A stretch of DNA of 64,000 nt from Dehalococcoidia bacterium (GTDB taxonomy: Bacteria > Chloroflexota > Dehalococcoidia > Lucifugimonadales > UBA2985): NCBI GenBank assembly GCA_965261605.1, contig OZ253466.1, positions 1,440,819 to 1,504,818 of the forward strand. The letters are read 5' to 3'. Each line of letters starts with the position of its first letter. Position 1 is the stretch's first letter. The translations under genes were made by a program, and so were the position numbers. Below, piece after piece: positions 31,857 through 56,258 of this stretch. A model generated the notes under the pieces. It worked only from the letters and a program-made list of their open reading frames with translations. It ran no database searches and was not told the DNA's origin.

Positions 31857-31859
31857 AAG

Positions 31860-32945: not shown

Positions 32946-34049
32946 ATGAATACCGATATTCAGAAGCGTCTCGATCTTCTGCTGAAAAATATTGAGGAGT
33001 TTAGCGCGCAGCAGGTGGGCTACCCGTGCAACCAGGACTTCGACTACTCGGAGCTGTGGCCCTTCCTCCAGTACAGCGCCAACAACGTCGGCGACCCCTT
33101 CCATGGCAGCAGCTTCCAAGTCAACACCCACGAGATCGAATACGAGGTGATCAACACCTTCGCCGCCTTGATGCACCTGGAGCGGAGGGAGGCCTGGGGC
33201 TACGTCACCTCCGGCGGCACCGAGGGCAATATGTACGGCCTGTACATGGGGCGCGAAATCTTCCCGGACGGCGTGGTGTACTTCTCCCAGGACACCCACT
33301 ACAGCGTGGTAAAGATCATGCGTCTGCTGAAGGCCCGCAACATTATGATCAAGAGCCAGCCCAACGGCGAGATCGACTACGACGACCTCTACGAGACCAT
33401 CCGCATCAACCGCGACTCGCCGGTCATCTTCATGGCGAACATAGGCACCACCATGAAGGGCGCAATAGACGACGTTAGCAAGGTACGCGCAATCCTCAAA
33501 GACCTTGCCGTGACCAACTCCTACATCCACGCGGACGCCGCTCTTAGCGGCATGATATTGCCCTTCGTGGATGAGCCTCAGCCCTACGGATTCGACGTCG
33601 GCTTCGACAGCGTGTCCATAAGCGGGCACAAGATGATAGGCTCCCCATTGCCCTGTGGCATTGCTCTCACCAGGCGCGAGTACGTGGCTCGCGTCGCACG
33701 CTCCATCGAGTACGTCGGCGTCCTGGACACCACCCTGACAGGCTCCCGCAGCGCCATTACGCCGCTCATGATTTGGTATGCCCTTGAGAAGCACGGGCTG
33801 GGTGGCTTCAAGCGGATTGTAAATGAATGTCTGGACAAAGCCGAGTACGCGGTCACGCGCTTCAGGGATAGCGGCATACCCGCCTGGCGCAACAAGAACT
33901 CCGTTACGGTCGTCCTTCCGAAACCGTCCCCAGAAGTCATCTTCAAATGGCAGCTTGCCCCCTACGAGGATATAGCCCACATGCTGACAATGCCTCACGT
34001 AACGCGCGAGACTATAGACGCAGTCGTGGATGATTGCCTTAATCAGTAG
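32946..34049 (+). CDS. hdc: Pyridoxal-dependent histidine decarboxylase
   Basis: As I recall them, Gram-negative HDC sequences share long identical stretches with this ORF: QPNGEIDYDDL, ANIGTTMKGAIDD, HADAALSGMILPFVD and SGHKMIGSPLPCG (PLP lysine). Confidence 0.85.
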   Translation: MNTDIQKRLDLLLKNIEEFSAQQVGYPCNQDFDYSELWPFLQYSANNVGDPFHGSSFQVNTHEIEYEVINTFAALMHLERREAWGYVTSGGTEGNMYGLYMGREIFPDGVVYFSQDTHYSVVKIMRLLKARNIMIKSQPNGEIDYDDLYETIRINRDSPVIFMANIGTTMKGAIDDVSKVRAILKDLAVTNSYIHADAALSGMILPFVDEPQPYGFDVGFDSVSISGHKMIGSPLPCGIALTRREYVARVARSIEYVGVLDTTLTGSRSAITPLMIWYALEKHGLGGFKRIVNECLDKAEYAVTRFRDSGIPAWRNKNSVTVVLPKPSPEVIFKWQLAPYEDIAHMLTMPHVTRETIDAVVDDCLNQ

Positions 34050-39316: not shown

Positions 39317-41792
39317 TTGAAGAGGTATTTATTCGTCGTCGTCTTGGCTCTAGCTGTTACGGCTGGTCTGGCCTGTCGCGATTCTGTGCCCACGCCAACT
39401 CAAACACTGGGGCCCGAGTTGACAGCGGCGCCGACCGCGACACCTACTTCTATTCCAATGCCCTCGCCCACCCCAACTGCTACTCCGACATCAACTCCGA
39501 TACCCGCGCCTGAGCCGACCCCGACCATTCCTTCAACGCCAATGCAGACACCCACGCCTACCCCGGCAGGAGAGCGGATAGACTGGACCCGGTGCGAATC
39601 ATCCGATCTTGAGTGCGGATTTATAGAAGTCCCCGCTGACTACCGTGACCCCGAGGCCGGCAGCATCAGAATTGCGGTCAACGTGCATCGGGCCACGTCT
39701 CCGCAGGAACGGATAGGTTATCTATTCTTCAATCCTGGTGGTCCGGGCGTGAGCGGAGTAGATTTTGTCAACTATCTTCCACTCCTAGGGTTCACAGATG
39801 AAATCGTCGCGCATTTCGACTTCGTCGGCTTCGACCCACGCGGAGTCGGAGCGTCCGAGCCTGCGTTCGCGTGTGGCGACCGCGGTGAGCAGCTCGCGCT
39901 GCTTGCCACGATTGACGGGAACATAGACACCCCCGACGAGATAGCGGCGGGGGAAGCGGCCGCCAACCTGTGCATCCAGTCAATGGGTCCGGTCGGCGGT
40001 CTGTTGCACAGCGAATATGTCGCCAGGGACATGGATGAAATACGCAAGGCCCAAGGCCCTAGGCGCCGATCAGATTTCCTACCTGGGATTCTCCTACGGG
40101 TCTGTGTTGGGGGTCTGGTATGCAACGCTCTTTCCCGAGTCGGTTAGGGCAATGGTTGTCGACGGCGCCGACAATCCGGTTGACCCGGCCGCCACCCAAC
40201 AGGAACGCATTGACGAGGCAATCGAGGAGGTCGCACCGTTAGCTGCCTTCCTGGAAAAGGCGCTGACAGCGTGCGCTGGTCCGGAATGCCCCATATACAA
40301 CGACGGCGACCCGGTTGACTACTTCAAGCAGGCTGCAGCGAAACTGGACCTTGTCAACGCTGCGGCGGACGATAATCCCGACGCGGGCCTAGCTGGGGTG
40401 ATCTCGACCCTGTACAGTGAGGAGGACTGGCCCGGCCTGTGGCAAGGCCTGTTCGAACTCAACGAGAACGACGACCCGTCTATTCTTCTCGATTTCGCCA
40501 GGAGAAACCTGCCCCCGGAACCCGACGCTGCCGACTTAACTGGCCACATCAATTGCCTAGACCGCTGGGTCTTGTATCCGGAATTGGACCGCACCATACA
40601 GCTGGACGACTCCATACCCATTGCCGCCACCATTGAGGAAATGTTCCCCTTGCTGGCGGCAATAGGGTTTCCCTTGGTGGCGGCAAGAGGCCCCTCGTTC
40701 CTCAGCCCCTGCCCGTTCTACGACCAGTTCGCCCCCGAACCGCTTGAGGGGACTCTCGACGGCGGAGGCGTGCCGATACTGGTAATCGGCAACCACTCCG
40801 ACCCTGTTACTTCGTTCAGTGAATCCGAAGAGCTCGTAACGGAGACGCTCAGCAACGGCTACCTGCTGGAAACCTCTCACTTTAAGCACACTGTCTACCC
40901 TGAGAACAACTGTGTTAACGACCATGTCCACAGGGCGCTGATTGACGGCGTTTACCCAAGTGAGCGTCGGCTCTTCTGCGAGGAGGAAGCCGGCCCAACT
41001 CCATCGGAGCCGACCGCCACTCCGGAGACTCCGCCGACCGGGGAGTTTGCCTCCGTCAGCGCCGGGGGAATCCACACCTGCGGCGTTAAGACCGACGGCT
41101 CGGTAGCCTGCTGGGGGTATGACGATTCTGGCCAGGCCACGCCACCGGCCGGGGAGTTTGCCTCCGTCAGCGCCGGGGGAGGCCACACCTGCGGTGTGAT
41201 GACCGATGGATCGGTGGCCTGCTGGGGCTATGATGATTCTGGCCAATCCACTCCGCCGGCCGGGGAGTTTGCCTCCGTCAGCGCTGGGGGATCGCACACT
41301 TGCGGCGTGATGACCGACGGCTCCATCGCCTGCTGGGGCATTGACATCTTTCGCCAGGCCACTCCGCCGGCCGGGGAGTTTGCCTCCGTCAGCGCCGGGG
41401 GATCGCACACCTGCGGGGTGATGACCGACGGCTCCGTCGCCTGCTGGGGCGATGGCGACTTTAGCCAGTCCACACCTCCGGCCGGGGAGTTCGCCTCCGT
41501 CAGCGCCGGTGGATTGCACACCTGCGGTGTGAAGACCGACGGCTCGGTGGCCTGCTGGGGCGATGGCGACTTTAGCCAGTCCACACCTCCGGCCGGGGAG
41601 TTCGCCTCCGTCAGCGCCGGTGTATCGCACACCTGCGGGGTGAAGACCGACGGCTCCATCGCCTGCTGGGGCAATGGCGACTTTGGCAAGTCCACACCTC
41701 CGGCCGGGGAGTTCGCCTCCGTCAGCGCCGGTGTATCGCACACCTGCGGGGTGAAGACCGACGGCGCCGTCGCCTGCTGGGGGGGCTACTAG
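39317..41792 (+). pseudogene. Lipoprotein alpha/beta-hydrolase (tripeptidyl-aminopeptidase-like) fused to RCC1-like repeats, disrupted
   Basis: Lipobox LAVTAGLAC, PT-rich linker, nucleophile GFSYGS, and seven 37-aa repeats. The frame is broken by the 7-bp tandem duplication at 40045-40058, and there is an in-frame TAG at 41790. Confidence 0.7.
40045..40058 (+). repeat. 7-bp tandem duplication (AAGGCCC)x2 causing a frameshift
   Basis: cgc aaggccc aaggccc taggc. Removing one copy gives [20 protein letters not shown] as one continuous frame. Confidence 0.85.
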
Positions 41793-41905
41793 TCGGCCAG
41801 TTCATGCTGACCGGCGGGGGTCGCCTCCGTCAGCGCCGGGGGATTGCACACCTGTGGGGCTACTGATGACGGCGACGTTCTCTGTTGGGGCGTGAAGACG
41901 CGGGG
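41040..41905 (+). repeat. Tandem 111-nt (37-aa) RCC1-like coding repeats: seven in frame plus an eighth beyond stop codons
   Basis: GGGGAGTT(T/C)GCCTCCGTCAGCGCC recurs at 41040, 41151, 41262, 41373, 41484, 41595 and 41706 (period exactly 111), with a degenerate copy near 41817. Confidence 0.9.
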
Positions 41906-42109
41906 CTGAGCTAGACAGGCCTGAAACGTACTCCCTCAGTTGGACCAGATAGGTTCCTCTGGCCAACCGAGGTCCTCCCTTGCCGGAGAGCGACAGATGA
42001 ACCCACGGCGGGGTCTACACGTGCAGAACGAACCTCAATGTGAAGGTTCTTGATTTTGTCTAGTTTGGTGGGCCAGAGTGTACCGTACTGCGAACTTTTC
42101 GGTGGGTGA

Positions 42110-43555
42110 TTACCCTGTGACTGCGAGTACCTGCCCCTTACTGCCCGCGTTCGAGCCGGTTCGGTGTAGAGCAGCATCCTCTACAGAGTCGCTTGGCACA
42201 TCTGCACCCAGTGCCGCTGTTGCGTCTGCGTCCCGACTGTGCCCGTTCGACGGTGATGACGACTCAGAGTAGGACAGTATCTGGGACAAGACCCGACCAT
42301 GTAGATAAGTGAAGTAAGTGGGGAACGCCTCCCCTACCAGATTCCGAACGAGGTAGGTCGTTCTATTCTCTCGTGCTCGTGTCCAGTCGTAGAACCTGGG
42401 AACGGTCTGTAGGTCGGCACACTCAAGGATGCTGAGAACCCTGTTCTCCCATGGATGAATTTTGAAGTCACTACCGACATGGCTTGAATTGGTAGTGATA
42501 GTGTACGCGGGCCTGCTGGGATTCATTCGTCGGTAGCTTGAGTGGAAGCCCCTAACCAATGACGGGGTCCCGTTTCTATCGACATACGGCCTGTTTCGCA
42601 TGATCCCGTTGCAAGAAGGGCATGTCGCCCAACCCTCTTCTACTGGCTGGTGATCGCACGAGGGACACATATCGTTCTCGTAGGCGCTCCGCCCAGAGTA
42701 CGGAGGAATTTGGCTGATCTGCTGGTAGCGGTCTGGGCCGTAAGCGGGAACGAAGTGCAGTGGGTGCGTACCATGCGCCGTGTCTTTGGACTTCGCGTCC
42801 AGCGGTTCGTACTTCATTGCTTCGAGCCATTGCCGCACACTCACCCACGATTGCATACCATTGGCCGGCTTCTCCTGGTGGGTCGGACTTGGCCAGGGAT
42901 GATGGTCTCGTGACAGCAATCGTTCGAGCCCTTGCTCGTCCTTGTGTATAGCCACGACCAATGCCCGCCTTCTGACCTGAGGTATGCCATAATCGGCCGC
43001 GTTCACCACCCCGGGAAACACTTTGTACTCGGGCAGAAGTTTGTGAAGAATATCAACTGCCGTGCCCTTTGTACCCTCGTACTCAACGTCGAGGGTCAAT
43101 ACCTGGCGAACGTTTTCGATGACGATTATCCTCGGCTTGAGTAGGCGTGCTATCGGGATGACTTCCAGCAACAGCCGGTTCTTTTCTTCCAGAGCCTTCG
43201 CCTGCGGCGTCTGCCGCTTGCCCCTACTTGGATTCGAGCTGCTCATGCCCTGGCACGGGGGAGTAGCTACCAGCAAGTCCAGCCGCCTGGTTGTGGACCG
43301 GCGATATGCCACCGTGATCGCACTCCCACTGTCGCGGGCGTCGCAAGTAAGCCACTGAGAAGTGGGGAAGTTATCGGCGCCAATGGCAGCTCGCCTCTGG
43401 TCGACCTCGACCTGGACGATGAAGCGGAACCCGGCCATCTCGTACCCCATGTCGCTCAAGCCGGCACCTGAGAATAGGGAAACGGCAGTCAAGTGGGCAT
43501 CATCCATCGGCCTTTCCCGTAGTATGAATTCACGAACGAGCTGGCTAGACACCAT
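42110..43555 (-). CDS. dcm: DNA (cytosine-5)-methyltransferase
   Basis: Motif I LFSGAGL, motif IV PPCQGMS, motif VI ENV, motif VIII QVRRRALV. Confidence 0.9.
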   Translation of the reverse strand: MVSSQLVREFILRERPMDDAHLTAVSLFSGAGLSDMGYEMAGFRFIVQVEVDQRRAAIGADNFPTSQWLTCDARDSGSAITVAYRRSTTRRLDLLVATPPCQGMSSSNPSRGKRQTPQAKALEEKNRLLLEVIPIARLLKPRIIVIENVRQVLTLDVEYEGTKGTAVDILHKLLPEYKVFPGVVNAADYGIPQVRRRALVVAIHKDEQGLERLLSRDHHPWPSPTHQEKPANGMQSWVSVRQWLEAMKYEPLDAKSKDTAHGTHPLHFVPAYGPDRYQQISQIPPYSGRSAYENDMCPSCDHQPVEEGWATCPSCNGIMRNRPYVDRNGTPSLVRGFHSSYRRMNPSRPAYTITTNSSHVGSDFKIHPWENRVLSILECADLQTVPRFYDWTRARENRTTYLVRNLVGEAFPTYFTYLHGRVLSQILSYSESSSPSNGHSRDADATAALGADVPSDSVEDAALHRTGSNAGSKGQVLAVTG

Positions 43556-44018
43556 CTTCTCCTATGTCGGAGGTAGGCTTCTCTAGAGAAGCAGCGTGTA
43601 TTACCGGAACCAGGCGGTCAACGGTCTCAGCGAGTTCCGCTTTGGTTCTGACTTCGTGCTCCGGAATACGAACCACTGTCCAGCCAGCGTCCGTAAGCCA
43701 TCTCGTGACTTGAAGGTCTCGGTCTCTATTGGCGCTTATCTTGTTCACCCAGAATTGGCCGCTCAGACCTGAGTGCTTGCGGCACTCGGGACAGCCGTGC
43801 CAGAAGCACCCGTCAACAAAGATAACAATCCTTTTTTTAGGTAATACCATGTCAGGGTTCCCGGGGAGTCGCTCACCTGTAACGGACTTGTAACCCTTGT
43901 GTGTAAAGTATCGCACCCCTCTGCGCCACAACCCCGACGCCAGTGCTCTCTCCGGTCGAGTTCTTCCTCGGTTGTGCGCCATCGCCTTGTGCCTCTGATG
44001 GGGCGTCATGATGTCCAT
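43545..44018 (-). CDS. vsr: Very short patch repair endonuclease
   Basis: ...TRPERALASGLWRRGVRY...PDMVLPKKRIVIFVDGCFWHGC...W.VVRIPEHE. Start placed at ATG 44018. Confidence 0.85.
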   Translation of the reverse strand: MDIMTPHQRHKAMAHNRGRTRPERALASGLWRRGVRYFTHKGYKSVTGERLPGNPDMVLPKKRIVIFVDGCFWHGCPECRKHSGLSGQFWVNKISANRDRDLQVTRWLTDAGWTVVRIPEHEVRTKAELAETVDRLVPVIHAASLEKPTSDIGEDGV

Positions 44019-44022
44019 TGGA

Positions 44023-45996
44023 CTAGGTATCGACCTCAGGGATAGTCTTATCGTTCTCTTCAACTGACGGGCTCCTGCTGACTCGCGTGACCTCTAACCA
44101 ACCGGTATGAAGTCGCTTGGTGTTCTCAATCACACTGTCCCATGTTTGAAACTCAAGCCTAACTTCTCTTACTTGCTCTAAGCTCCTTCTAGTCCTATCT
44201 GCCCTCTCAGTGTACCCACTAGCGACCATAAGGCCACTAACCGACGGAGGAGCAGTGTTTAAACTGTAGTTGGCGTAAACTCCGAGCACGTAGGAATGAA
44301 ACTTGTTGACCTCTTCTTCGCTCACCCTGTGTATGCTCCCGTTAGCTTTGACGCCTCGCTTGATCTCAACGACGAGTATCTCGTCGAAGGGAGCTGGTGC
44401 CTGCGGCCTCAAAATGAACAGGAAGTCTAGCCGTTGTCCAGTCTCGTCATCGAGAGTTGGTTCATAGTGTTCTTGTAAAGTCGCAGGGTCTATTTCGTCT
44501 CCTAGAAGGCTCCACCTCGGATCGAGAATCCAAGGGAATTCCTTGATGACGTTGTGTATTTCTGGAACCTCAGTGGCTCCCGCTTTTATTGCGGCACCTA
44601 GCCGGTCAATCGTGCCAAGCCTAGCTTGAATAATGCTGTAGTTCTTTCTGGCATCAATCAGTGAAAACTCTCGGACGAGTCCCCAAAAGTTGCTTTGAAA
44701 CCCTTCATCCTCAAATTGGACACGTTCCATGAGTTCCCGGACCGCCTTGTCCTTAAAACCATCGATTACTTCTACCATAAAATCGTGAACTTCACTTGGT
44801 TCAGGGTCCCCGATTTGAGATACTTTCCGTGCAATATCTCCGAGATGTCGCTGCTCGGTTGCAGTAAAATCCTTCAGCAATTCCAGGATGTCTGGAACGT
44901 CGATAGATTTTTCGGCTTTCTTCTGACGGAGGTTTTGTCGTTGAGACAAAGCCCAATTCAGCCTACGACGACCCCATTGCAATAGTTCCTGTACCCTGTC
45001 GTCTTCTAGCTGAAGCTGGTCCCGGTTTGTCTGGATCAAGTCGTCTTCAATATCAGTCCCAGTGTCCAACCAGTCCGCGACTACTTCACCAACTACATAC
45101 TCCTGCCCAAGTTGGCCTCTAACTCCTTGTGTGCGTTCGAACATAAAGGGTCTTTGGAGGAGTTTCCGTCGTCCGATAATAGAAATACCTCGCAAGTATT
45201 CCGCGTCCAATGGCTTCGGTGTAAAGCCGATCCACCAACGAACTTCTTTCCCGTCGGGCAATTGCTCTGTTCCCCACCCATCCTGTCCAACTACCACTGA
45301 ATATCCTGCGGGTGTGCCGTCCTTTGGGAATCGAAACTCTAAGTCCATGTCGAATCGTTGTAGTTGGTTCTCGTTGATGAATACAGTCATGTCAGTTTGG
45401 TCGATAGCGAAGCGGCGAGACATAGACCTCATGAACTGGTCTTCAGAAATGGCCCGCTTTAGCCGAAGACGCGACAGCCGAATCCTGGTTCCACTCGGAA
45501 GGTTCGATCCGTCTGGTGCGCCAAGCGGCCCTTGGGAGGCAGTTTCCTTCACCTCGCAATCGGCACCAGGGGCTGACCTCCGTATTTCTTGGTAATCGAG
45601 TTGAAACGACACTTCTTCGTCGCCACGTACCGAATAGCAGTCAAGTATTTCAGCTGTTCCGAAAGCCGCGAGCTTGCCTATCCCTTTGCGACCGTGAACT
45701 GGTCGGCCGCCCTGAGTTTGTCCTCCGTCCTGAAGCCGTCGCTTACGACCGACTATCAGGTATTGCGACTGGGCTTGTTCCCTGGTCATCCCATGGCCGT
45801 CGTCTAGAACTTCAATCTCGCCATCAGTGGTCCAAGACTGGCCGAAAGGGATCTTGACCCAAACGTTGTGGGCATCCGCATCCCATGCGTTAGATATGAG
45901 TTCAGCCACTGTCGCTGTAGCGCTTGGGTATAATTGGGCCCCCAATTGCTCGACAAGTGCCCCAACGAATTTTAGTTTGAGTGTCTCTTGAGCCAT
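44023..45996 (-). CDS. GHKL (HATPase_c_3 / paraMORC-like) ATPase fused to a C-terminal PD-(D/E)xK nuclease-like domain
   Basis: N box ELISNAWDA, G1 DDGHGMT, G2 GRKGIGKLAAFG. C-terminus EFPWILDPRW...GQRLDFLFIL...ILVVEIKRG. ATG 45996 is preceded by AGGAGG with a 5-nt spacer. Confidence 0.7.
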   Translation of the reverse strand: MAQETLKLKFVGALVEQLGAQLYPSATATVAELISNAWDADAHNVWVKIPFGQSWTTDGEIEVLDDGHGMTREQAQSQYLIVGRKRRLQDGGQTQGGRPVHGRKGIGKLAAFGTAEILDCYSVRGDEEVSFQLDYQEIRRSAPGADCEVKETASQGPLGAPDGSNLPSGTRIRLSRLRLKRAISEDQFMRSMSRRFAIDQTDMTVFINENQLQRFDMDLEFRFPKDGTPAGYSVVVGQDGWGTEQLPDGKEVRWWIGFTPKPLDAEYLRGISIIGRRKLLQRPFMFERTQGVRGQLGQEYVVGEVVADWLDTGTDIEDDLIQTNRDQLQLEDDRVQELLQWGRRRLNWALSQRQNLRQKKAEKSIDVPDILELLKDFTATEQRHLGDIARKVSQIGDPEPSEVHDFMVEVIDGFKDKAVRELMERVQFEDEGFQSNFWGLVREFSLIDARKNYSIIQARLGTIDRLGAAIKAGATEVPEIHNVIKEFPWILDPRWSLLGDEIDPATLQEHYEPTLDDETGQRLDFLFILRPQAPAPFDEILVVEIKRGVKANGSIHRVSEEEVNKFHSYVLGVYANYSLNTAPPSVSGLMVASGYTERADRTRRSLEQVREVRLEFQTWDSVIENTKRLHTGWLEVTRVSRSPSVEENDKTIPEVDT

Positions 45997-46010
45997 CAAT
46001 TCCTCCTGAC

Positions 46011-46616
46011 TCAACAAGCCCTTTCGAAATAGTCCAAGACATCGGTGTGTCTCACCACCCGCGCCCCTAAACCCCGCAGGTTAGCGTTCCCCGGGCTGTC
46101 CAGCGTCAGCATCGGCTTACCAGAGGCGGCGAGATTGCGAGCGAAGGCTTCCGTCTTGCTGCCAGGGGCGGCATGGGCGATGAAGACTTGGGCTGCTAGA
46201 TCGGCCACCAAGTCGTTGCGGCGAGCGGCGACATCCGCCTTTGGGCGGCGGACCGTCGCGGGGAAGGGCGAGAGGACCAGCAAGCGGTCTTCGTCTAGGG
46301 CTGTGCGCCAGTCGCGGGGGATGCGCATGTTGTCGATGCCCCGAGCGGGGCAGACGACCACTGGCTGCTCACCCCGGAGCAGCCAGCGCAGGCACTCCCG
46401 CTCCATCGGCGTTTGGAAGCCTCCGATGACCGGCACGCCGGCGTCGCGCATGGCCCTTGCGAGGTCGTAGGTCTTGAGGATGAGGTCGCCGGGGCAGCGG
46501 TTGGAGCAGAAGAGGGCCGTCAGCGGCTCGTCGAGCAGGCGCAGATTGCCCCGGGCCGCCGTATTCGGCGGCAGCGAAGTCATGGTCTGACAGCTACGGA
46601 CAGCGGGCGGTCTCAT
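46011..46616 (-). CDS. Stand-alone DprA/Smf-like (SLOG-fold) protein
   Basis: TALFCSNRCPGDLILKTYDLARAMRDAGVPVIGGFQTPMERECLRWLLRGEQPVVVCPARGI...LLVLSPF...RRNDLVADLAAQVFIAHAAPGSKT follows the DprA Rossmann pattern. ATGA overlap with the upstream gene. Confidence 0.6.
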   Translation of the reverse strand: MRPPAVRSCQTMTSLPPNTAARGNLRLLDEPLTALFCSNRCPGDLILKTYDLARAMRDAGVPVIGGFQTPMERECLRWLLRGEQPVVVCPARGIDNMRIPRDWRTALDEDRLLVLSPFPATVRRPKADVAARRNDLVADLAAQVFIAHAAPGSKTEAFARNLAASGKPMLTLDSPGNANLRGLGARVVRHTDVLDYFERAC

Positions 46617-46981
46617 ATCGGCAACACCCGGACCCGGTTTCGGCTTTCGTCAACCACGACCAAGGCTCCGGAGGACAGGTCGGCCTCATGCTGGTTGAGA
46701 GCCGCGATGACCGAGCTCTCCAGGTAGTCCGGCAGGACATTCTCGGCGCGGACCTGAAGCACACTTGGGCCGACGTTATGCGTCAGCGCCAGCATGGTGC
46801 CGAAGTCCAGGTCGTGGGTGAACACTACGCATTGGTGAGTAGCTGCCCAATCCATGATGTCCCTGTCGCTAGCCCTTGGATCGCCAACGTCGGACCAGTG
46901 TACTGCCTGCCATCCGTGCTTCTGCAGCGCCGGTACCCATTCGGGTGATAGGTTCATGTCAACGAGGAGCGTCGGCCTCAT
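46613..46981 (-). CDS. DUF5615-type PIN-like toxin (putative)
   Basis: MRPTLLVDMNLSPEWVPAL...VVFTHDLDFG. ATGA overlap with the DUF433 gene. Confidence 0.6.
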   Translation of the reverse strand: MRPTLLVDMNLSPEWVPALQKHGWQAVHWSDVGDPRASDRDIMDWAATHQCVVFTHDLDFGTMLALTHNVGPSVLQVRAENVLPDYLESSVIAALNQHEADLSSGALVVVDESRNRVRVLPI

Positions 46982-47223
46982 GACGTTGAGAGGGGGACTT
47001 CCCGTTCCTCCAGCCTCCAGGCGGCATAGGCCAGGGATTGGTCGATGTCCTCCCTTTCAAGATACGGATAGGCCTTGAGGATTTCGGTAGGTGAGCGACC
47101 GGCCGCCAAGAGACCCACAACCGTCCCGACCGTTACGCGCATTCCACGGATGCACGCCTTACCGCCCATGACGGCAGGGTCGATGGTAATTCTTTCCAGT
47201 GATTTCATGATCTCCCCTTCCAC
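46978..47223 (-). CDS. DUF433-type antitoxin (putative)
   Basis: ITIDPAVMGGKACIRGMRVTVGTVVGLLAAGRSPTEILKAYPYLEREDI. Confidence 0.65.
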   Translation of the reverse strand: MEGEIMKSLERITIDPAVMGGKACIRGMRVTVGTVVGLLAAGRSPTEILKAYPYLEREDIDQSLAYAAWRLEEREVPLSTS

Positions 47224-47271
47224 GATCAGATTCTTGCGGCTTTCCGTCCAGCGTGCCTGGTGTATCCTGGG

Positions 47272-47505
47272 TCAGCGGCCCCATGCTTCCTTCTCTTCTG
47301 CCAAGTAGGCCGCCACGTCTGCGGCCGTCTTGAAGACCAAGTGCCCTGGCGCTTCGTCCAGAATGTCAACGGCAGACCGGCGTTCTGACGCCGCCGACTG
47401 GCTAACAACCACGTCAACGGACTCCCCCACGGGAAGCCCCTGGTCCACGATCTCGATCTTGCCGCCCGGCAGTACCGTCGTTCTTATGTGCAGTACCTTT
47501 TGCAT
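47272..47505 (-). CDS. Hypothetical small protein (antitoxin-like)
   Basis: 77 aa, MQKVLHIRTTVLPGGKIEIVDQGLPVGESVDVVV... Its first 64 nt are repeated at 48031-48094. Confidence 0.4.
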   Translation of the reverse strand: MQKVLHIRTTVLPGGKIEIVDQGLPVGESVDVVVSQSAASERRSAVDILDEAPGHLVFKTAADVAAYLAEEKEAWGR

Positions 47506-47540
47506 GGTTGACGCCTCCCTTGTTCGGCGATTGTCACCGT

Positions 47541-47750
47541 CTACGCTTGGTCGAAGTCCTCCCGGCTGATGTCCAAGTCTCTTCGGATGCCGTGAAGGGT
47601 CCCCGTGGCCAGGTCCCGTTTGCCGTGTCTGGGAACGGTGGTTTCCTGGTTGTTGGCTGGGTTGATCCAGATTTCGTGCGATCCTCCTGCCTGGCGGTCA
47701 AAGGCGCATCCGAGCCTTCTGAGCTTCCTCGTCAGTTCTCTATAGGTCAT
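47541..47750 (-). CDS. hicA: HicA mRNA interferase toxin
   Basis: MTYRELTRKLRRLGCAFDRQAGGSHEIW...VPRHGKRDLATGTLHGIRRDL. Confidence 0.85.
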   Translation of the reverse strand: MTYRELTRKLRRLGCAFDRQAGGSHEIWINPANNQETTVPRHGKRDLATGTLHGIRRDLDISREDFDQA

Positions 47751-47992
47751 ACAGCCACAGATATCCTGCCCTCTCCGGTCTGGGATCGAGCTATCCCCGC
47801 AGGCAGGGATTTGCCCCGTTCCCTGTAGGAGAGGATGAATTGCTCAGCCACCGTGCACAGTTCGGCCAGGGTCTGGTTGGCGTTCTCCCCCCACGCACGG
47901 CACCCGGGCAATCCCGGTATCTCTGCCATGTAAAGCCACCCCTGGTCTTCACGGGGTTCGTGCAGTACATAGTCCAACTGGTACAGTTCCAT
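47747..47992 (-). CDS. hicB: HicB antitoxin
   Basis: ...GWLYMAEIPGLPGCRAWGENANQTLAEL... (UPF0150/HicB N-domain). ATGA overlap with hicA. Confidence 0.75.
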   Translation of the reverse strand: MELYQLDYVLHEPREDQGWLYMAEIPGLPGCRAWGENANQTLAELCTVAEQFILSYRERGKSLPAGIARSQTGEGRISVAV

Positions 47993-48019
47993 CTCGTCCT
48001 CCTTGGATCCCCTTAGCCT

Positions 48020-48094
48020 TCACCTCTCCCGGTCCACGATCTCTATCTTGCCTCCCGGCAATACCGTCGTCCGTATGTGCAACACTTTTTGCAT
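48020..48094 (-). pseudogene. Truncated paralog of the 47272-47505 gene (24 codons)
   Basis: MQKVLHIRTTVLPGGKIEIVDRER-stop. The first 21 aa are identical to the neighbour, and all ~8 nucleotide differences are synonymous. Confidence 0.6.
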
Positions 48095-48155
48095 CTACTC
48101 GTCCTCCTTGTAGCCTTGCCCCTTCACTCCACTGTCTGCCCCAAGGCTGTTATGT

Positions 48156-49007: not shown

Positions 49008-52000
49008 CTATCCCTCCCGCCCCATGCGGTATTTGATGTCGTAGTTGATGATGAAGTCCAGTTCCTCATCCGTGAAGCCGTAGTGCTCGGCCAGCATCCG
49101 GTCAACGTTGTCGATGAAAGGCTTTGCCGATGCCGGACTGAATCGTTGGTACTCAACCGCCCCGCCGATGTTGTACGTCGCCGCCTGAATATCTGAGTTT
49201 TCTTCAAGGCAACTGATTATCTGATGTGCGGATTTCTGCAAGAGGGATACACCATCAGCAATCGAGTCCGGAATAGGTATCGACTCCAAATCAGAAGGGT
49301 TGAAGTCCCTGCAATTCGTGCGCGCTTGATACAGCCAGTAGTGAAACGTACTCCAGAGCAAGCAGAAGACGGTGTCTCTTATGAGTGGATTTGGAAAGCA
49401 GACGCTGCTTTCACGAGTAGACGACCCTTCTATTCCGTCCCGCCAGAATCGAGGTGGAGACGTTGTGAAGGTAAACCAGCGGTTCACTCCAGTGATCTTG
49501 TAATAGATGCGATGCTCAGTTGGCGTGGCAGAAATCAGACTTCCAAGGGTAGTGGGCAGACTTAGCACCTTGCGATAAATGTTAAGGTCCGTCTGTGAAC
49601 GAAGCTTCGGAATTACTTCGCCAGGAATGGCAACAGGAGCGAACTGATACTGCACAAGGTCGAGAAGACTTGGAGTCTCTTCCTTGTACCACTTGTGATA
49701 TCTAGTAGTGGCAGTGGTGCGATGTTGTTTAGAAGTGCCTTTGCAGTGCAAAACGATACAGACCCGACAGTTGTTCATACCTTGAAACAGCTTTGAAGGA
49801 CGATCATTAAATATGGCATATGAGGTGAATTCCGAATGCTGGTAGAGAAGCTCTCGCAATTGAGACATGCGCTGTGTTGAGACAACTGGAGCTTGCACGA
49901 TAAAGCCTAGTCGTCGACCTGAGCCAAGTAGATTGGAGCTCCTCTCCGCACAGAGAGCATAGAGATTGCCACACTGCTCTGTTTCGAACCCTCGAATCTC
50001 ATACTCCCTGCGAATCTTGCTGTATTCCACGTACGGCGGGTTGCCAATGACGACGTCAAAGCCACCCCTAGCCATGATGCCGTAGAACTCCGCGAACCAG
50101 TGGAAGGGCTGGTGGCCGTTGCGCCAGGCGTCGTAGGTGGCGGTTTTCTTGGGGTCCACGCCGTACTCGGCGGCTAGGAGACGGTCCAGTTCGTTACCCA
50201 GGCTCTGCAGGCGGTCGCGCAAATCCTTCTTGTGTTCGGCGGTGACCTCTCCGCCCAGCGCGGTCTGCTGCTCACGGAAGCGATCGAAGGCGCGGCCGGC
50301 CACGTCGGCGTCCTCCTCTATGCGGGCCAGCGTCCTTTGCTGCTCTTCGTCAAGCGCCCGGTATTGGCCGTTGGGCATAACCGTCATGGCCTGCCGCACA
50401 GCGTCCAGGGAGGTGAAGCCGACGAGGGTGTTGCCCGCGCGGATGTTGAAGTCTATGTCCGGCAGCGGCTCTATCTGGTCATAGGTTTCGAGCTGGGCCA
50501 CGAGCTTCAGGAAGAGGCGCAGTTTGCAGATCTCCACCGCCTCTTCCATGATGTCCACGCCGTAGAGGTTGTTGAGGACAATGGACTTGAGAATGAAGTA
50601 GCGCTCGCTGGGATGACCGTCCGCCTCATCCAGCACCTTGCGAAAGTCCTCCAGGAAACTCGCGCTGCGCTTGTGCTCGGACCTTTCGGCGTCGTCCAGA
50701 AAGCCGCGCATCCCCTCCAGACAGGCGGTATAGAGGGGTTCCAGAATGTTCAGGGCAGCGAACAGGAACGCGCCTGAGCCGCAGGTGGGGTCGAGGACCG
50801 ACACGTCGCGCATAGCGTGCCAGAAGGCGCGCAGGAGGTCATGCCCTGCGCTCTGGGCGATGACGTCCCTGGCGAACCGCTCAATGTCCAGGTTCAACGT
50901 GATGAGGTCGTTGACATTCTGCGCCTCGCCCGACGCGAGCTTGGCCCTAACCTCTTCATAACGGGTGCGGCGAGCCACGACCTCGCGCCAAGTCTCGGTT
51001 GGTAGCGCGTAGTCGTCCGGCGCGGGCCGGTTCCAGCCGCCGCGCTGCGACACATCGCCGATGCCGGCGGCGATGTCGTCCGGCAGATGGAAGGGAGTGT
51101 CGAGGGGCTTCGGGTCTTCGGCCTGCCGCGCGTTCCAGGTGATGCCGTGGCCAACGGCGGGGTAGATGTAGCGGTCGGGGTCGTCCCGCAGCAGCCGCCA
51201 GACGCCGCCGTCCGGCCCGAAAGCCACCGGGCACTCCTTCCGAGCGGCGTCGAACAGGAAGGGGATGACTGTGTTCCGCGAGATGTAGCCGGTGATGTCC
51301 TCCTTGGTGTAGTAGGCGCCCATCTGCTTCTGGTTGACGTACTTCTCGAAGATGTAGCCAAGCACGTCCGGGTTGATCTCGTTGTCCTTCTTGCCGGGGC
51401 GGTCGTCCAGGTGCCAGGTGTAGCCGTCGAAGAAATCGAAGACCCTCTCGAAGGCGGCGTCGGGGATGGAGATGTCCGGGTTGTCCTGCTCCAAGGCGTG
51501 CTGGTCGAACAGGCCGCCGTTGAGGAAGGGCACTTTGCCCAGCAGCGCGATGAGGTCGGGCGTGCGCTGGGCTTCGGGCAGCGCCAGGCCCTTGTGGAAC
51601 AGCCGGAGGAGGAAGATGCGATAGAACTGCTGGAAGCGCCCGCCACCGCTTTGGTTCCGGACCGTGCTCAGACGGTTGCGAAGATAGTCCGGGTCACCGT
51701 CCAGAAAGTTCTTCTTCTGGATGAAGTAGACGAACATCATGCGGTTCAGCATGAGGGAAGCGTACCAGTCCCGGTCGCCCTGGGCGGTGATGCCCTCGAT
51801 GAAGTTCCCGAAGGCGGTCAGCTCGGCCCGGAAGCGTTCATAGAAGCGCTTGGTGACCTTCTCAACGTCGAAAACCTTGCCGACGAGAGAGACAACGTCG
51901 GTAATCCCGATGCCCTTGGCCTCGTCCTCCAACGTAAACAAGAAGTTATCGAGGCGCTGCAAGAGTGGCTGCCCCGTTTGGCCGGCATAGAAGCGATGCT

Positions 52001-52349
52001 CTCGGCAAGCGGTTGGTTTTCCGGCCTGCCTCTTAACCCATTGCCAAACTTGCTGCGTGCGGGCTGCGTCGACAAAGATGATGAGGTGCTCAAAGGCCCG
52101 CTTTGTGACTTGGGTCTCTATCTTGCGCCGCAACGGGTAATCGGGAATAGCGCCATCGGACCCTGGGGCGCATTGAAAGACGGCGAACTCCGCCTTTTTC
52201 GCTACGGGCCTGAGCGCGTACTCGAAGCCGTCCACAGGGATGGCTAGTGATTCACCCTGGAAGTGGTCCCAACCCAGGCCCTCCACGAAGAGACGCGGAA
52301 AGTCGAAAGCCTGTAGGTGGGGCCGTAGCTCTTCAATGGAGACTGGCAT
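49008..52349 (-). CDS. Large Eco57I/type IIG-like N6-adenine DNA methyltransferase with C-terminal recognition domain
   Basis: 1113 aa. FLNGGLF, motif I VLDPTCGSGAFL, motif IV VIGNPPYVEY. Its ATG overlaps the helicase TGA by 1 nt (TGATG). Confidence 0.85.
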   Translation of the reverse strand: MPVSIEELRPHLQAFDFPRLFVEGLGWDHFQGESLAIPVDGFEYALRPVAKKAEFAVFQCAPGSDGAIPDYPLRRKIETQVTKRAFEHLIIFVDAARTQQVWQWVKRQAGKPTACREHRFYAGQTGQPLLQRLDNFLFTLEDEAKGIGITDVVSLVGKVFDVEKVTKRFYERFRAELTAFGNFIEGITAQGDRDWYASLMLNRMMFVYFIQKKNFLDGDPDYLRNRLSTVRNQSGGGRFQQFYRIFLLRLFHKGLALPEAQRTPDLIALLGKVPFLNGGLFDQHALEQDNPDISIPDAAFERVFDFFDGYTWHLDDRPGKKDNEINPDVLGYIFEKYVNQKQMGAYYTKEDITGYISRNTVIPFLFDAARKECPVAFGPDGGVWRLLRDDPDRYIYPAVGHGITWNARQAEDPKPLDTPFHLPDDIAAGIGDVSQRGGWNRPAPDDYALPTETWREVVARRTRYEEVRAKLASGEAQNVNDLITLNLDIERFARDVIAQSAGHDLLRAFWHAMRDVSVLDPTCGSGAFLFAALNILEPLYTACLEGMRGFLDDAERSEHKRSASFLEDFRKVLDEADGHPSERYFILKSIVLNNLYGVDIMEEAVEICKLRLFLKLVAQLETYDQIEPLPDIDFNIRAGNTLVGFTSLDAVRQAMTVMPNGQYRALDEEQQRTLARIEEDADVAGRAFDRFREQQTALGGEVTAEHKKDLRDRLQSLGNELDRLLAAEYGVDPKKTATYDAWRNGHQPFHWFAEFYGIMARGGFDVVIGNPPYVEYSKIRREYEIRGFETEQCGNLYALCAERSSNLLGSGRRLGFIVQAPVVSTQRMSQLRELLYQHSEFTSYAIFNDRPSKLFQGMNNCRVCIVLHCKGTSKQHRTTATTRYHKWYKEETPSLLDLVQYQFAPVAIPGEVIPKLRSQTDLNIYRKVLSLPTTLGSLISATPTEHRIYYKITGVNRWFTFTTSPPRFWRDGIEGSSTRESSVCFPNPLIRDTVFCLLWSTFHYWLYQARTNCRDFNPSDLESIPIPDSIADGVSLLQKSAHQIISCLEENSDIQAATYNIGGAVEYQRFSPASAKPFIDNVDRMLAEHYGFTDEELDFIINYDIKYRMGREG

Positions 52350-55300
52350 CAGCGGTTGTCCTCACTGTCGAACAGCCCCAGGGAGCAGATGATCTGCGGT
52401 TCCTGGGCCTCGGCAACTGCGTTCCCCGTTAGGCAGAGCCTGTCCTCCTCACGCAGCGACATGACGATTTCGGCCAACTGGTCGTCGGAGACGCCGCTGC
52501 GGAGCTGCCGGTTCAGGGTGTCCACTGCCGACGGGCGCAGAGGATAGCGGTAGATGTCGTCGATGGCCTTGTGCAGCGCCTCCACGTCGAACAGCTGGCC
52601 CTTGATGGCCTCCGCGTACTGCTTGAGACGGGTGTACGTGCGGAAGCGAGCGCCGGAGGGCCGCCCGAGCTGGCCGCCGACTCGCTTCTCCTCCCTGACG
52701 AGGTGACCGACCCCGTCGGCGACGAGGCGATGGTGGCTCTCGTGATGAGGCTGCGCAGGGGTGTCCGGCCTGCACTCGGCGGCGGCGAGGATTTCAAGCT
52801 GCGACTCGGTGATGCTGTGACCCTCGCGGTCCACGTAAGCCAGGGCGTCGTTCCCGTCCGCCGTGCGCATGAAGACGAGGACGCCTTCGGGCCGCTGGGC
52901 GATGGGCGTGTGCTGGCGAGACGAGAACACGACGTCGGGCAGGTCGGCGACGGCCTTCTCCAATCGCGGGTCCGCGCTCGTAGCGTTCTTCCAGATCTGG
53001 TAAGCGTGGGACGCCAGGTCAACCTCACCGTCGGGGTCGCCGTCCAGGATGCCGGCGCGCTCGTTGTAGAGGTTGACGATGGTCTGGCTATCGGATTCAT
53101 CTTCGAAGAAAGCCTCGTCCGCGCCAACGACCTCCGCGTTTTCCCGAAGCCGCGTCCGAACGCGGTTACGCAGGTTGATGATACGCTCTACGCCGTCGGC
53201 GGGCAGGAAGGAGTGGCACAGAATCTCCTCCGCCTTCTGCCCTATGCGGTCGACGCGGCCCGCCCGCTGGATAAGACGGATGATGGCCCAAGGCAGGTCG
53301 TAGTTGACGACGACGTGGCAGTCCTGGAGGTTCTGGCCCTCGCTGAGTACGTCGGTGGCGACCAGGACGCGAAGCTCCTGTTCCGGTTTGTCCTGGCCCG
53401 GCCGCTGGTTGCTGTTGGGGCTGAATCGCCGTGCAAACTGCGTGGGGTCGGCGGAGCTGCCGGTGACGCCCGCCATAGCCTCCACGCCTCTGCCCTTGAG
53501 CTGCGACTCAAGGTAGAAGACCGTATCGGCGAACTGGGAGAAGACCAGGACCTTCCGGTCCGGGAACGTCTCCATAAGGAGCGTGTGGAGCGCGTCGAGC
53601 TTGGCGTCGTGACGCGGGTCCCATGCGCCGTAGGTCTGGAGCAGGTCCAGGAGGGCGTTGGAGTCGGCCTGGAGTTCGCTCTCCAAGGAATCCCGAAAGA
53701 GGTCGGAGCGGAGCCACTTGAAGCGTCTCCTATAGCGGCCCTCGTAATCCGCGTATATAGCGGCGGCGCTCGCTTCGAAGCCGGCCGCAGTCCAAGCGCC
53801 GCCGGTCTCCTGGACTTCCTCTTCCTGCTCGTCATCGTCAGGGTCGAAGAGTGATCCCCTCGCCTGGTCTGCGTCTTCGTCGGTGAAGCGGGAATCCAGC
53901 ATCTCGGCGTCCTGCGTGCCAAGGGGCAGCGGCAGGCCATTCTGGAGGGCGTGAAGGAAGACATAGTTTCGGAGAACGTGACGTTCGACGGATTGCAGGA
54001 AGGCCGCGCCGCTGCTTTCCAGGCGTTTGAAGAGGTTCGTACGGCAGAAGCCCATCAGCCGCTTCCCGGCCCGTGAGAGGTCGTTTATTTGGCGATCCTC
54101 GGCAGTAGTGGGCGGCGTCCCCGGGTTGTCAGCGACGTAGTTGCCAAGGCCGTATCTTGGCAGATGCAGATTGTTCACCGTATCGACCACCTGTTGCGAG
54201 TACAGCTTGGCGTACTGGTCATCTGGATTGGACTCGTCGATGGCGAATTTGACTGTCTTAGGAATACGGGTGGGGAAGAACGATTGGGTTCCGTCCTCGT
54301 AGGTGAGGAACTTTCGCCCTGTCTCCTGTTCCGTCTCCGCGTAGTTGTCCTGGATGAAGCTGCGGGTGCGGCGCACGAGGTAGAGTCTCATCAGGTCCCG
54401 CCAGTCATCTGCGTGCTCACTGAAGTCGAAGGCCGCCAGGGTGCGCGGCGAGGCCTGGTGGCGCCTGCTGAACTCGATCTCGCCCAACTCTCGCAGGAGT
54501 CGTTCGGGGCGGATGCCCAGGTCTTGGTCTTCCTCAACGAAGATGCGCAGTTGGCTGGACAGGTCCAAGTACGTCTTGTTGTAGGGCGTAGCCGATAGGA
54601 GAATGCACTTGCTCTCGTTTGCGTGTACGTACTCTTGGATTGCCCGATAGCGGCGGCCCTCGCGGTTTCGAAGGTTGTGACTCTCGTCAATGACAACCAG
54701 TCGGTAGCGGCGTAGGGTGGGCAGCTCGCCGAGCACCCTGCTGAGGGACAGCACCCTGGCCCGCAGCTGGTACTGGTACACGTAGTCTTCCCACATGGGG
54801 ACGAGGTTCTTGGGGCAGATGATAAGCGTCTCCAGCCCGTAGTCGTCCTCGAAGATGCGAGCGACGGCGGTAGCCATGAGTGTCTTGCCAAGTCCCACCA
54901 CATCCCCGATGAGCACGCCGTTGCGCTTGTTCAAATGGTGGGCCGCGATCTTGACTGCGGCGGCCTGGAAGTCGAACAGCCGGTCGCCGAACACCTTGGG
55001 AATCCTGAACTCGGCAAGACCGGCGCGGGCCTCGTGAGAGAGGTGGTAGGCCATCTTGAGGTAGACGTGGTAGGGAGGAATGAGCGCTTCCCGCGCCCAA
55101 CTCTCTTCGATGATCTGAAGCAGCTCGTCCGTGATGTCAACACAGAAGCGGTCGCTCCACCTGTCCTCGAACCACTGCGTGAGCTTGAGAGCGGCGTCGT
55201 GGTCGAGCACGTCCACGTTCAACTCGCCTTGCCCGGAGAGCCCTGCGAAGGTCAGGTTGCTGCTTCCCAGGTAGCCGACGATGGGGTTGACGGGGTCGTC

Positions 55301-55744
55301 TCGGAACAACAGGTAGAGCTTCGCGTGCAAAGGATGACGTAGGAAGAGCTTGACAACGACCTTCTTGGCGCGAAGCTGCTCGGCCAACTGCCGTAAGGTC
55401 CGCTCGTCGGCGTTGGTAGGCGCACCCATGGTGAGCTGCTGGCGGAGTTGCTCGGCCAACTGGACTCTGAGGCGATGCGCCGTCTGGTTGTCCATGCCGG
55501 AGGGCCTGTCGACGAGGCTTAGCATCTCCCGGAGCTCCTCGTGGGGCAGACGCTGCATCCCGATGAGGACGCGGCACGGGCCGTCGTCGTCACTCCAGTC
55601 GTCCACGCACGGGGCAAGACCGCCCCAGCCTCGCAGGTTGAAGTAGCCGACGCAGAAGTCCGCACGCGAAGAGAGCGCCAGAGTCTCTTGCAACGCGGGC
55701 AGTAGGCTTGAATCAGGCGCAAGGTTGTCGAAGATACGCGGCAT
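52349..55744 (-). CDS. PLD-nuclease domain fused to SNF2-family helicase
   Basis: PLD HxK motif HAKLYLLF...GSSNLT. Helicase motifs GDVVGLGKTLMA (I), VIDESHNLRN (II), LLSATPYNK (III), QRAGRVDRIGQ (VI). Confidence 0.85.
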   Translation of the reverse strand: MPRIFDNLAPDSSLLPALQETLALSSRADFCVGYFNLRGWGGLAPCVDDWSDDDGPCRVLIGMQRLPHEELREMLSLVDRPSGMDNQTAHRLRVQLAEQLRQQLTMGAPTNADERTLRQLAEQLRAKKVVVKLFLRHPLHAKLYLLFRDDPVNPIVGYLGSSNLTFAGLSGQGELNVDVLDHDAALKLTQWFEDRWSDRFCVDITDELLQIIEESWAREALIPPYHVYLKMAYHLSHEARAGLAEFRIPKVFGDRLFDFQAAAVKIAAHHLNKRNGVLIGDVVGLGKTLMATAVARIFEDDYGLETLIICPKNLVPMWEDYVYQYQLRARVLSLSRVLGELPTLRRYRLVVIDESHNLRNREGRRYRAIQEYVHANESKCILLSATPYNKTYLDLSSQLRIFVEEDQDLGIRPERLLRELGEIEFSRRHQASPRTLAAFDFSEHADDWRDLMRLYLVRRTRSFIQDNYAETEQETGRKFLTYEDGTQSFFPTRIPKTVKFAIDESNPDDQYAKLYSQQVVDTVNNLHLPRYGLGNYVADNPGTPPTTAEDRQINDLSRAGKRLMGFCRTNLFKRLESSGAAFLQSVERHVLRNYVFLHALQNGLPLPLGTQDAEMLDSRFTDEDADQARGSLFDPDDDEQEEEVQETGGAWTAAGFEASAAAIYADYEGRYRRRFKWLRSDLFRDSLESELQADSNALLDLLQTYGAWDPRHDAKLDALHTLLMETFPDRKVLVFSQFADTVFYLESQLKGRGVEAMAGVTGSSADPTQFARRFSPNSNQRPGQDKPEQELRVLVATDVLSEGQNLQDCHVVVNYDLPWAIIRLIQRAGRVDRIGQKAEEILCHSFLPADGVERIINLRNRVRTRLRENAEVVGADEAFFEDESDSQTIVNLYNERAGILDGDPDGEVDLASHAYQIWKNATSADPRLEKAVADLPDVVFSSRQHTPIAQRPEGVLVFMRTADGNDALAYVDREGHSITESQLEILAAAECRPDTPAQPHHESHHRLVADGVGHLVREEKRVGGQLGRPSGARFRTYTRLKQYAEAIKGQLFDVEALHKAIDDIYRYPLRPSAVDTLNRQLRSGVSDDQLAEIVMSLREEDRLCLTGNAVAEAQEPQIICSLGLFDSEDNR

Positions 55745-55775
55745 AGACGCTCTTACCCTCTGCTCTCTGACGTTC

Positions 55776-56012
55776 TCACTTGGATTTTTCTTGTCCCGCC
55801 AAGAATGAATGGCTAGAGGAACGTACCTCTGGGCCGCTCCCTCCCCCGGTCTTCACCCACTCGTCTACCTCCGAGAGTCGGAAACGAAGGAGCCTCCCCA
55901 CCCTGTGAGCAGGAAAATCCTTTGTATCGACCCATCGGTAGATGGAGTCTCTGCCCACGCTCAGGTGGGCGGCCACCTCTCCGATGTTGACCCAACCTTC
56001 TTCAGACGCCAT
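55776..56012 (-). CDS. Excisionase/AlpA-type helix-turn-helix DNA-binding protein
   Basis: WVNIGEVAAHLSVGRDSIYRWVDTKDFPAHRVGRLLRFRLSEVDEWV. Start placed at ATG 56012. Confidence 0.7.
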   Translation of the reverse strand: MASEEGWVNIGEVAAHLSVGRDSIYRWVDTKDFPAHRVGRLLRFRLSEVDEWVKTGGGSGPEVRSSSHSFLAGQEKSK

Positions 56013-56258
56013 GTCCCAGTAACTCCTCATCAAGAAAGCCTATCACCTACAATGAAAATATAAGACTATAGACATGTATCGTCAATATCCTTGACCCTCT
56101 CCCAAGCAGCGGGAAAGCGGCATCGGGACTTCGGACAGCAAAAAAGGGCAGCATACACGGGAACACGGCCAGTCTGAAACGCAAAAAGGCCGCACACATG
56201 AACGAGCCAGGGGAGGCCTCCGCACTTGCAGCGACGACCTCCCCTGTATCTTAGCGGT

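Follow-up and report, generated by a model that had tools for sequence, protein, structure and literature searches.

A predicted GHKL-ATPase/nuclease gene in a Dcm/Vsr operon

We analyzed a 64,000-nucleotide stretch of DNA from a Dehalococcoidia bacterium (contig OZ253466.1, positions 1,440,819 to 1,504,818), referred to here as the window, with the focus on a minus-strand gene (44023..45996) for a GHKL-ATPase/nuclease of 657 amino acids, a predicted restriction subunit related to HgiDII and BbrUII. The gene occupies an open reading frame (ORF) at 44023..46017, which is intact from the ATG at 45996. A perfect AGGAGG lies 5 nucleotides 5′ of this ATG, and the TGA of the preceding gene is located just before. 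The product is identical to the database protein P0001, which is also 657 amino acids long.

On the minus strand, a DprA-like gene is followed by the GHKL/nuclease gene, vsr and dcm; neighbouring genes overlap or are separated by no more than a few bases. A single operon fitted this arrangement because the genes are so tightly packed. An earlier note, made from the sequence alone, had described the nuclease as embedded in a Dcm/Vsr operon, and this setting was borne out: Vsr and Dcm are both encoded on the same strand, at the close spacing given above. The vsr gene (43545..44018, minus) encodes a very-short-patch T:G mismatch endonuclease, as indicated by Pfam Vsr (E=3.3e-20) and TIGR00632 (103.6 bits compared to the cut-off of 97.85). 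Its probable start is ATG 44018; the alternative TTG 44063 would overlap the upstream gene, and in the long Vsr ORF the Pfam Vsr match does not start until residue 16. The dcm gene (42110..43555, minus) encodes a cytosine-5 DNA methyltransferase of 481 amino acids (DNA_methylase, E=1.8e-33; PADLOC MTase_II, E=8e-48), which is the predicted protective partner of the nuclease. The FSGAGL, PPCQ, ENV and QVRRR motifs were found in its translation, together with a zinc-ribbon-like insert at residues ~289–322. The window vsr and dcm genes overlap by 11 nucleotides in different frames.

The DprA/Smf-like gene (46011..46616, minus, 201 amino acids) ends 15 nucleotides 5′ of the nuclease ATG. It was identified by DNA_processg_A, with 31 bits at a cut-off of 29.6, and by PADLOC PsyrA (E=1.3e-11), and no RecQ-like PsyrT partner was found near it. 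Among the related loci described below, this gene was confined to the neighbourhoods of the five closest relatives (L001, L002, L003, L007, and L026). It could be an accessory specific to the clade, or simply a passenger with no relation to the other genes. A scan of 41800–48100 for promoters and terminators revealed no promoter-like site, and the number of terminator-like sites was not above the shuffled expectation. The G+C content of the nuclease gene is 0.51, compared to about 0.62 in its flanks. Such a low G+C content is as expected of a mobile defence gene, and so is the neighbourhood, which includes toxin-antitoxin pairs and a Type IIG-like system (see below).

The ATPase and middle domains

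The full-length protein was modelled with AlphaFold2 (AF2) using 75 homologues as input, which gave a mean predicted local distance difference test (pLDDT) score of 77.7. Four parts can be distinguished in the model: the GHKL domain, a second alpha/beta domain, a helical linker, and, at the C-terminus, a further alpha/beta domain.

The GHKL (Bergerat-fold) ATPase domain comprises residues ~1–180 (45457..45996, minus). The N, G1, and G2 boxes quoted in the earlier note were all present, with ELISNAWDA at residues 32–40, DDGHGMT at residues 65–71, and GRKGIGKLAAFG at residues 102–113. Pfam HATPase_c_3 (PF13589) matched with 62.9 bits (cut-off 25, E=4.2e-17), which is above the gathering threshold and far beyond chance. 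The ATPase motifs are E32xxxN36, D65xGxG69, G102–G113, and G169–T170. Residues E32, N36, D65, G67, G69, G105, G107, and G113 were conserved in at least 90% of a diverse family set of 54 proteins (the window protein and 53 homologues; alignment at 17–54% identity). Even in homologues with as little as 17% identity, the catalytic residues of both the ATPase and the nuclease showed little or no variation.

The middle alpha/beta domain, which we infer to span residues ~185–310 (45067..45444, minus), was modelled at pLDDT 85–94 and resembles the Hsp90/MORC transducer. When the full-length model was compared with the PDB by Foldseek, TRAP1, Hsp90, GRP94, and MORC2/3/4 were retrieved at E=2e-15 to 1e-12. 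These alignments covered 410–470 columns and reached past the GHKL core, which argues that the first two domains form a GHKL-plus-transducer module. The TM-scores were modest (0.31–0.36 on the query), as expected with a multi-domain model. At the sequence level, the full-length protein gave only weak Hsp90 matches in the PDB. The helical linker (residues ~333–470; 44587..45000, minus) was the least confidently modelled (pLDDT 36–70) and the least conserved part of the protein, with an identity of 22–32% between subfamilies, the lowest of any part.

The predicted C-terminal nuclease domain and its wider family

Because the full-length Foldseek matches were dominated by the GHKL part, the C-terminal domain (residues ~476–641; 44074..44571, minus) was modelled separately. 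The resulting AF2 model (pLDDT 84.5, predicted TM-score 0.82) has the order helix/three strands/helix/strand, an arrangement typical of the restriction-endonuclease fold, with helices at 477–486 and 560–577 and strands at 498–502, 524–531, 539–546, and 585–592. The strings on which the earlier note had based its reading of a PD-(D/E)xK domain were located at residues 486–495 (EFPWILDPRW), 522–548 (RLDF...VVEIKRG), and 561–570 (EEVNKFHSYV). In the model, D524, E544, and K546 are placed on strands 2 and 3, and E476 just ahead of the first helix of the domain. Across C-terminal domains that are 20–53% identical to that of the window protein, D524, E544, K546, W489, and Y569 were invariant, and E476 was at least 90% conserved.

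The window protein itself and its clade were not recognized by Pfam nuclease models. No matches were obtained at E<=10 with the C-terminal 229 or the middle 245 amino acids, and the 41 sequences of the clade alignment (window protein included) gave only noise and no nuclease family. In particular, SduA_C/DUF4263 (PF14082; threshold 27 bits) matched neither the window C-terminus (E<=10) nor any of these 41 sequences. Two inserts are characteristic of the nuclease domain in this clade, QAPAPF at residues 532–537 (44392–44409) and ANGSIH at residues 551–556 (44335–44352). In addition, the motif IV position is occupied by K565, where the family and Shedu have Q. The two inserts and K565 probably explain why the Pfam nuclease models miss the clade.

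Structural searches with the C-terminal model returned restriction-fold proteins at low significance. The best PDB match was MUS81-EME1 (E=0.017), and the FokI cleavage domain was retrieved with a probability of 0.91–0.94; E values of the top matches ranged from 0.017 to 0.04. Further restriction-fold matches in the PDB were Nt.BspD6I, XisH, and HamA. In the BFVD viral library, the model matched the N-terminal domain of RPB5 and entries labelled 'restriction endonuclease' with similar strength. No match in either library reached E=1e-3. No solved Shedu or NucS structure was among the top 50 PDB matches, nor were they among the BFVD matches. A narrow C-terminal profile (A2) gave only spurious matches against PDB sequences.

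The C-terminal domain was placed through its wider family. The C-terminal profile of the window clade was searched against 1.84 billion representative proteins, and 180 proteins were retrieved; nearly all of the full-length ones were 590–700 amino acids long and shared the C-terminal placement of the domain. Within the diverse set of 54 proteins, Pfam matches were obtained to HSDR_N_2 (35 proteins), SduA_C (22, best E=1.7e-8), NucS_C (20), and HSDR_N (19). One homologue, P0262, passed the SduA_C threshold with 35.3 bits compared to 27, over profile positions 5–158 of 159. P0262 is colinear with the window protein over the full length (BLASTP, E=2e-28), with D524, E544, and K546 matched. That P0262 passes this threshold places the window domain on the NucS/SduA_C branch as a diverged relative. 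Other homologues scored 17–26 bits, several of them just under the threshold (P0153, for example, at 26.4 bits). Against PDB sequences, P0262 gave only Hsp90/MORC matches in the N-terminal part and no Shedu. When the broad-family profile was compared with solved structures, NucS 2vld (E=4.9e-4) and EndoMS 5gke (E=0.013) were matched, and the alignments brought the D, ExK, and Q..Y motifs into register.

Taken through this wider family, sequence matches and the predicted topology assign the C-terminal domain to the PD-(D/E)xK nucleases on the NucS/SduA_C/HSDR_N branch, of which the window clade is a diverged offshoot. The fold proposed in the earlier note is thus upheld by the AF2 topology, the conserved E-D-ExK residues, the HSDR_N_2, SduA_C, and NucS_C matches of the family, and the NucS profile match, although the window protein itself has no Pfam nuclease match. 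The likeness to the Shedu/DUF4263 core proposed in the same note was retained only in part. It finds support in the colinear P0262, which passes SduA_C, and is opposed by the lack of PF14082 matches in the protein and its clade, the lack of Shedu in the Foldseek top 50, and the K in motif IV.

The missing Pfam nuclease match in the clade, the two inserts, and the replacement of the motif IV Q by K might also suggest a decaying or inactive remnant, with a nuclease domain that has drifted from recognizable families. Against this, the ORF is intact and preceded by a strong ribosome-binding site, and none of the catalytic residues varies among 75 relatives that are 58–97% identical. Moreover, at least 120 close homologues are present in public data, nearly all of them full-length. 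A remnant is thus extremely unlikely.

Restriction-enzyme relatives and pairing with Dcm

The best model for the window protein was NCBIfam NF050001, 'BbrUII/HgiDII family restriction enzyme', with residues 14–637 aligned on profile positions 9–645 of 659 (E=2.8e-70). Two PADLOC models of Type II restriction endonucleases were also matched (E=1e-32 for REase_II, and 9e-28). Other relatives tested on NF050001 scored 176–304 bits.

A scan with one genome per species yielded 62 loci, 61 of which had matches in the neighbourhood comparison. Most of the related loci come from metagenome-assembled genomes of Dehalococcoidia and other Chloroflexota, with the closest relative 98% identical. The others belong to Actinomadura (Actinomycetota), Acidimicrobiia, Vicinamibacteria (Acidobacteriota), Longimicrobiales, Rhodothermales, Limisphaerales, and Gammaproteobacteria. 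A C5-methyltransferase adjoins the gene in 58 of the 61 loci, either upstream or downstream, on either strand and in variable gene order. Pairing of this frequency, in many phyla and in several arrangements, argues for a functional dependence and not for chance co-location. More distant homologues on plasmids of Pantoea, Pseudomonas, and haloarchaea show the same picture, with an 'ATP-binding protein' encoded beside a 'DNA cytosine methyltransferase'. A Type IV (modification-dependent) enzyme was considered and rejected, because almost all relatives pair the gene with Dcm.

Vsr was present in about half of the 61 loci, and roughly half have Dcm without Vsr. In six loci (L003, L007, L012, L013, L014, and L041), Vsr and Dcm form one fused ORF of 577–611 amino acids, at about 7950–9750 in each.

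The position of the window gene directly upstream of vsr would also fit a MutL-like helper of very-short-patch repair, which would recruit or stimulate Vsr at Dcm-derived T:G mismatches and have no role in defence. MutL stimulates Vsr in E. coli, and the parallel was drawn by Iyer et al. (PMC2292703). The window protein shows weak matches to the MutL N-terminus (TIGR00585, E=3e-5), and its predicted nuclease domain lies on the branch of NucS/EndoMS, a mismatch endonuclease. MutL acting with Vsr or MutH likewise combines a GHKL ATPase and a restriction-fold nuclease in a methylation-marked DNA transaction. However, the nuclease of the window protein is fused to the ATPase, the MutL C-terminal dimerisation/endonuclease domain is absent, and MutL models match only about 50 N-terminal residues. 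The roughly equal share of loci with Dcm but no Vsr also speaks against such a helper, as do the intact nuclease site of the protein itself and the listing of related family members as restriction enzymes. Since Vsr already makes the incision, a second nuclease would be superfluous to repair. We regard a repair helper as very unlikely.

Comparison with known systems

R.HgiDII was described as a GHKL domain joined to a C-terminal domain of unassigned fold (Orlowski & Bujnicki 2008, PMC2441816), and BbrUII, a characterized Type II system, impedes DNA transformation (bioRxiv 10.1101/2023.09.16.557782). The window protein resembles R.HgiDII and R.BbrUII in length (about 650 amino acids), in colinearity over residues 14–637, in the N-terminal GHKL domain and distinctive C-terminal domain, and in the partner C5-methyltransferase. 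It differs from them in its low NF050001 score (see below), in the two inserts of the nuclease domain and K565 for the Q of the family, and in its Dcm, which is of another, longer type (481 amino acids, with the zinc-ribbon insert).

The paraMORC3 proteins consist of a GHKL domain, an S5 domain, and a restriction-fold domain with E-D-ExK, and are encoded in Dcm/Vsr operons (Iyer, Abhiman & Aravind 2008, PMC2292703). Going by this published description, every feature reported for them is present in the window protein or its operon. They were reported mainly from Proteobacteria and Bacteroidetes, whereas the window protein comes from Dehalococcoidia (Chloroflexota). The suggestion of the earlier note that a GHKL ATPase fused to a nuclease in a Dcm/Vsr operon would newly link two defence paradigms is therefore mistaken, since such fusions were described in 2008 (PMC2292703, PMC2441816). 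The fusion of GHKL to Shedu was catalogued in 2023/2025, and defence by one such protein, VcSduA of V. cholerae, was validated in 2025 (PMC12137116).

In the catalogue of Gu et al. (2023/2025), proteins with HATPase_c_3 and an Hsp90/MORC-like middle domain form Shedu type 1D, and EndoMS is the closest structural relative of the Shedu nuclease. For VcSduA, replacement of either E27 in the GHKL domain (E27A) or K557 in the nuclease (K557A) abolished defence; the protein was predicted to dimerise, with a middle domain resembling a clamp (PMC12137116). The window protein could accordingly be read as a self-contained Shedu type I-D nuclease like VcSduA, in which infection would be sensed by the GHKL domain and the Dcm-Vsr pair would be independent. 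The order of GHKL ATPase, middle domain, and PD-(D/E)xK nuclease is the same, and motifs I–III (E, D, ExK) correspond. SduA_C is matched by distant full-length homologues (P0262 above the threshold, P0153 below it), GHKL-Shedu fusions exist, with one validated as single-gene defence, and 602 Shedu genes were found within restriction-modification loci (Gu et al.). In contrast, PF14082 is failed by the window protein and its clade, motif IV (as defined for B. cereus Shedu) has K and not Q, and no solved Shedu structure appeared among the closest C-terminal structural matches. Furthermore, a single gene suffices for VcSduA, whereas the window family is almost always adjacent to Dcm, across many phyla and arrangements, and over its full length the window protein finds its best family match in named Type II restriction enzymes. 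This makes a self-contained Shedu nuclease distinctly unlikely.

NucS and EndoMS (2vld, 5gke) provide the best solved-structure sequence match of the family C-terminal profile, in which the D, ExK, and Q..Y residues line up. The window protein differs from them in that it has no NucS N-terminal domain, only the catalytic core (about 75 residues) aligns, and the biological context is another.

A predicted restriction endonuclease

The domain composition of the protein, the conservation of its catalytic residues, and the conserved pairing with Dcm are direct observations. We consider it likely that the gene encodes the restriction endonuclease of an HgiDII/BbrUII-type cytosine-5-methylation restriction-modification system. 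The window protein is a divergent member of an already known enzyme family and not a new kind of system. In such a system, the neighbouring Dcm would methylate the host copies of the target sequence and thus protect the host, and Vsr would repair the T:G mismatches left by deamination of 5-methylcytosine. The 657-amino-acid protein would cleave unmethylated incoming DNA through its C-terminal PD-(D/E)xK domain (E476, D524, E544, and K546). For this protein we infer sequence specificity, gating by ATP, and dimerisation. By analogy with MutL, MORC, Hsp90, and VcSduA, binding of ATP probably dimerises the GHKL and transducer-like middle domains. The ATP-closed dimer would form a DNA clamp that positions or licenses the two nuclease domains, so that the nuclease is probably under ATP-gated clamp control.

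Several observations weigh against this assignment. The NF050001 score of 237.6 bits is far under the equivalog cut-off of 550, so neither the function nor the recognition sequence is directly transferable from the named enzymes. Nucleases that are 66–76% identical are paired with Dcm proteins of four unrelated clusters (26–32% identity), which is not expected of a strictly co-adapted pair unless the methyltransferases are isospecific. The Dcm was swapped in two separate subclades (L010, L011, and L022 compared to the window group; L030 and L037 compared to L028, L029, and L040), and comparison of nucleases with different Dcm types for a specificity region revealed no localised divergence. In the window, GTCGAC occurs 16 times where 28 occurrences are expected (z=-2.3), which is only a mild depletion and no stronger than that of many other palindromes. 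Finally, HgiDII was employed as a conventional Mg-dependent Type II enzyme, and this speaks against a strict requirement for ATP. The simplest explanation of the Dcm swapping is replacement by an isospecific methyltransferase, as is known for EcoRI and RsrI; there is a small chance that target discrimination is looser than in classical Type II enzymes.

The surrounding window

The wider window constitutes a defence island, in which two toxin-antitoxin pairs lie immediately upstream of the operon on the minus strand, a DUF433 and DUF5615/PIN-like pair (46613–47223) and a HicA/HicB-like pair (47541–47992). The DUF433/DUF5615 pair recurs downstream of Dcm in L024 with 77–90% identity and thus behaves as a mobile module. 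Further upstream, a minus-strand cluster at 49008–58610 encodes a Type IIG-like methyltransferase-nuclease of 1113 amino acids (PADLOC REase_MTase_IIG, 1054 bits; DrmMI and PglX matched more weakly), a protein of 1131 amino acids with PLD and SNF2 helicase domains, and a ResIII/helicase protein of 783 amino acids. The stop of the PLD-SNF2 gene shares base 52349 with the start of the Type IIG-like gene. This set of three genes resembles DISARM or a related system.

On the other side of the operon, an alpha/beta-hydrolase (TAP-like) gene on the plus strand is seemingly split into overlapping ORFs 39317–40147 and 40017–41792; either a frameshift or a mistake in the assembly could account for this. 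In its C-terminal half there are several RCC1-like repeats in tandem (Pfam RCC1_2, six matched stretches, E=1e-49). Two further patches of low G+C content (0.45–0.49 compared to about 0.60) were found at 30000–33000 and 4000–7000. In the former patch, neither of two minus-strand ORFs (30330–31856 and 31860–32513) was matched by Pfam at E<=1e-5, and these genes may likewise have been acquired horizontally. No tRNA genes were detected across the window. The most under-represented palindromes of four bases in the window were GATC (153 observed, 252 expected), CGCG, and CTAG, and GCATGC was absent (0 observed, 9 expected).

Implications

The value of this assignment lies mainly in annotation, as a restriction function is assigned to a gene that is unnamed in databases; the understanding of these systems is unchanged by it. 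Two points are added here. The HgiDII family's C-terminal domain receives a predicted fold, on the NucS/SduA_C/HSDR_N branch, and HgiDII-type restriction enzymes are bridged by sequence to GHKL proteins that carry SduA_C, and so tied to the GHKL-Shedu and paraMORC3 proteins. Among the papers retrieved that mention HgiDII or BbrUII, none dealt with Shedu, and none was found to draw this link explicitly.

A more far-reaching idea, which we regard as unlikely, is that the HgiDII-type Type II enzymes and the GHKL-Shedu type I-D nucleases form one continuous family of ATP-gated clamp nucleases, with the window clade as a branch whose nuclease domain has diverged past recognition by Pfam, through the two inserts and the change of the motif IV Q to K, and which freely swaps between unrelated Dcm partners. 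If this were true, discrimination between self and non-self might rely on a co-evolved recognition sequence to a lesser extent than is the case for classical Type II systems, and the nuclease might read cytosine methylation in a looser context. The single-gene Shedu I-D nucleases could then be restriction-modification enzymes that have lost their methyltransferase.

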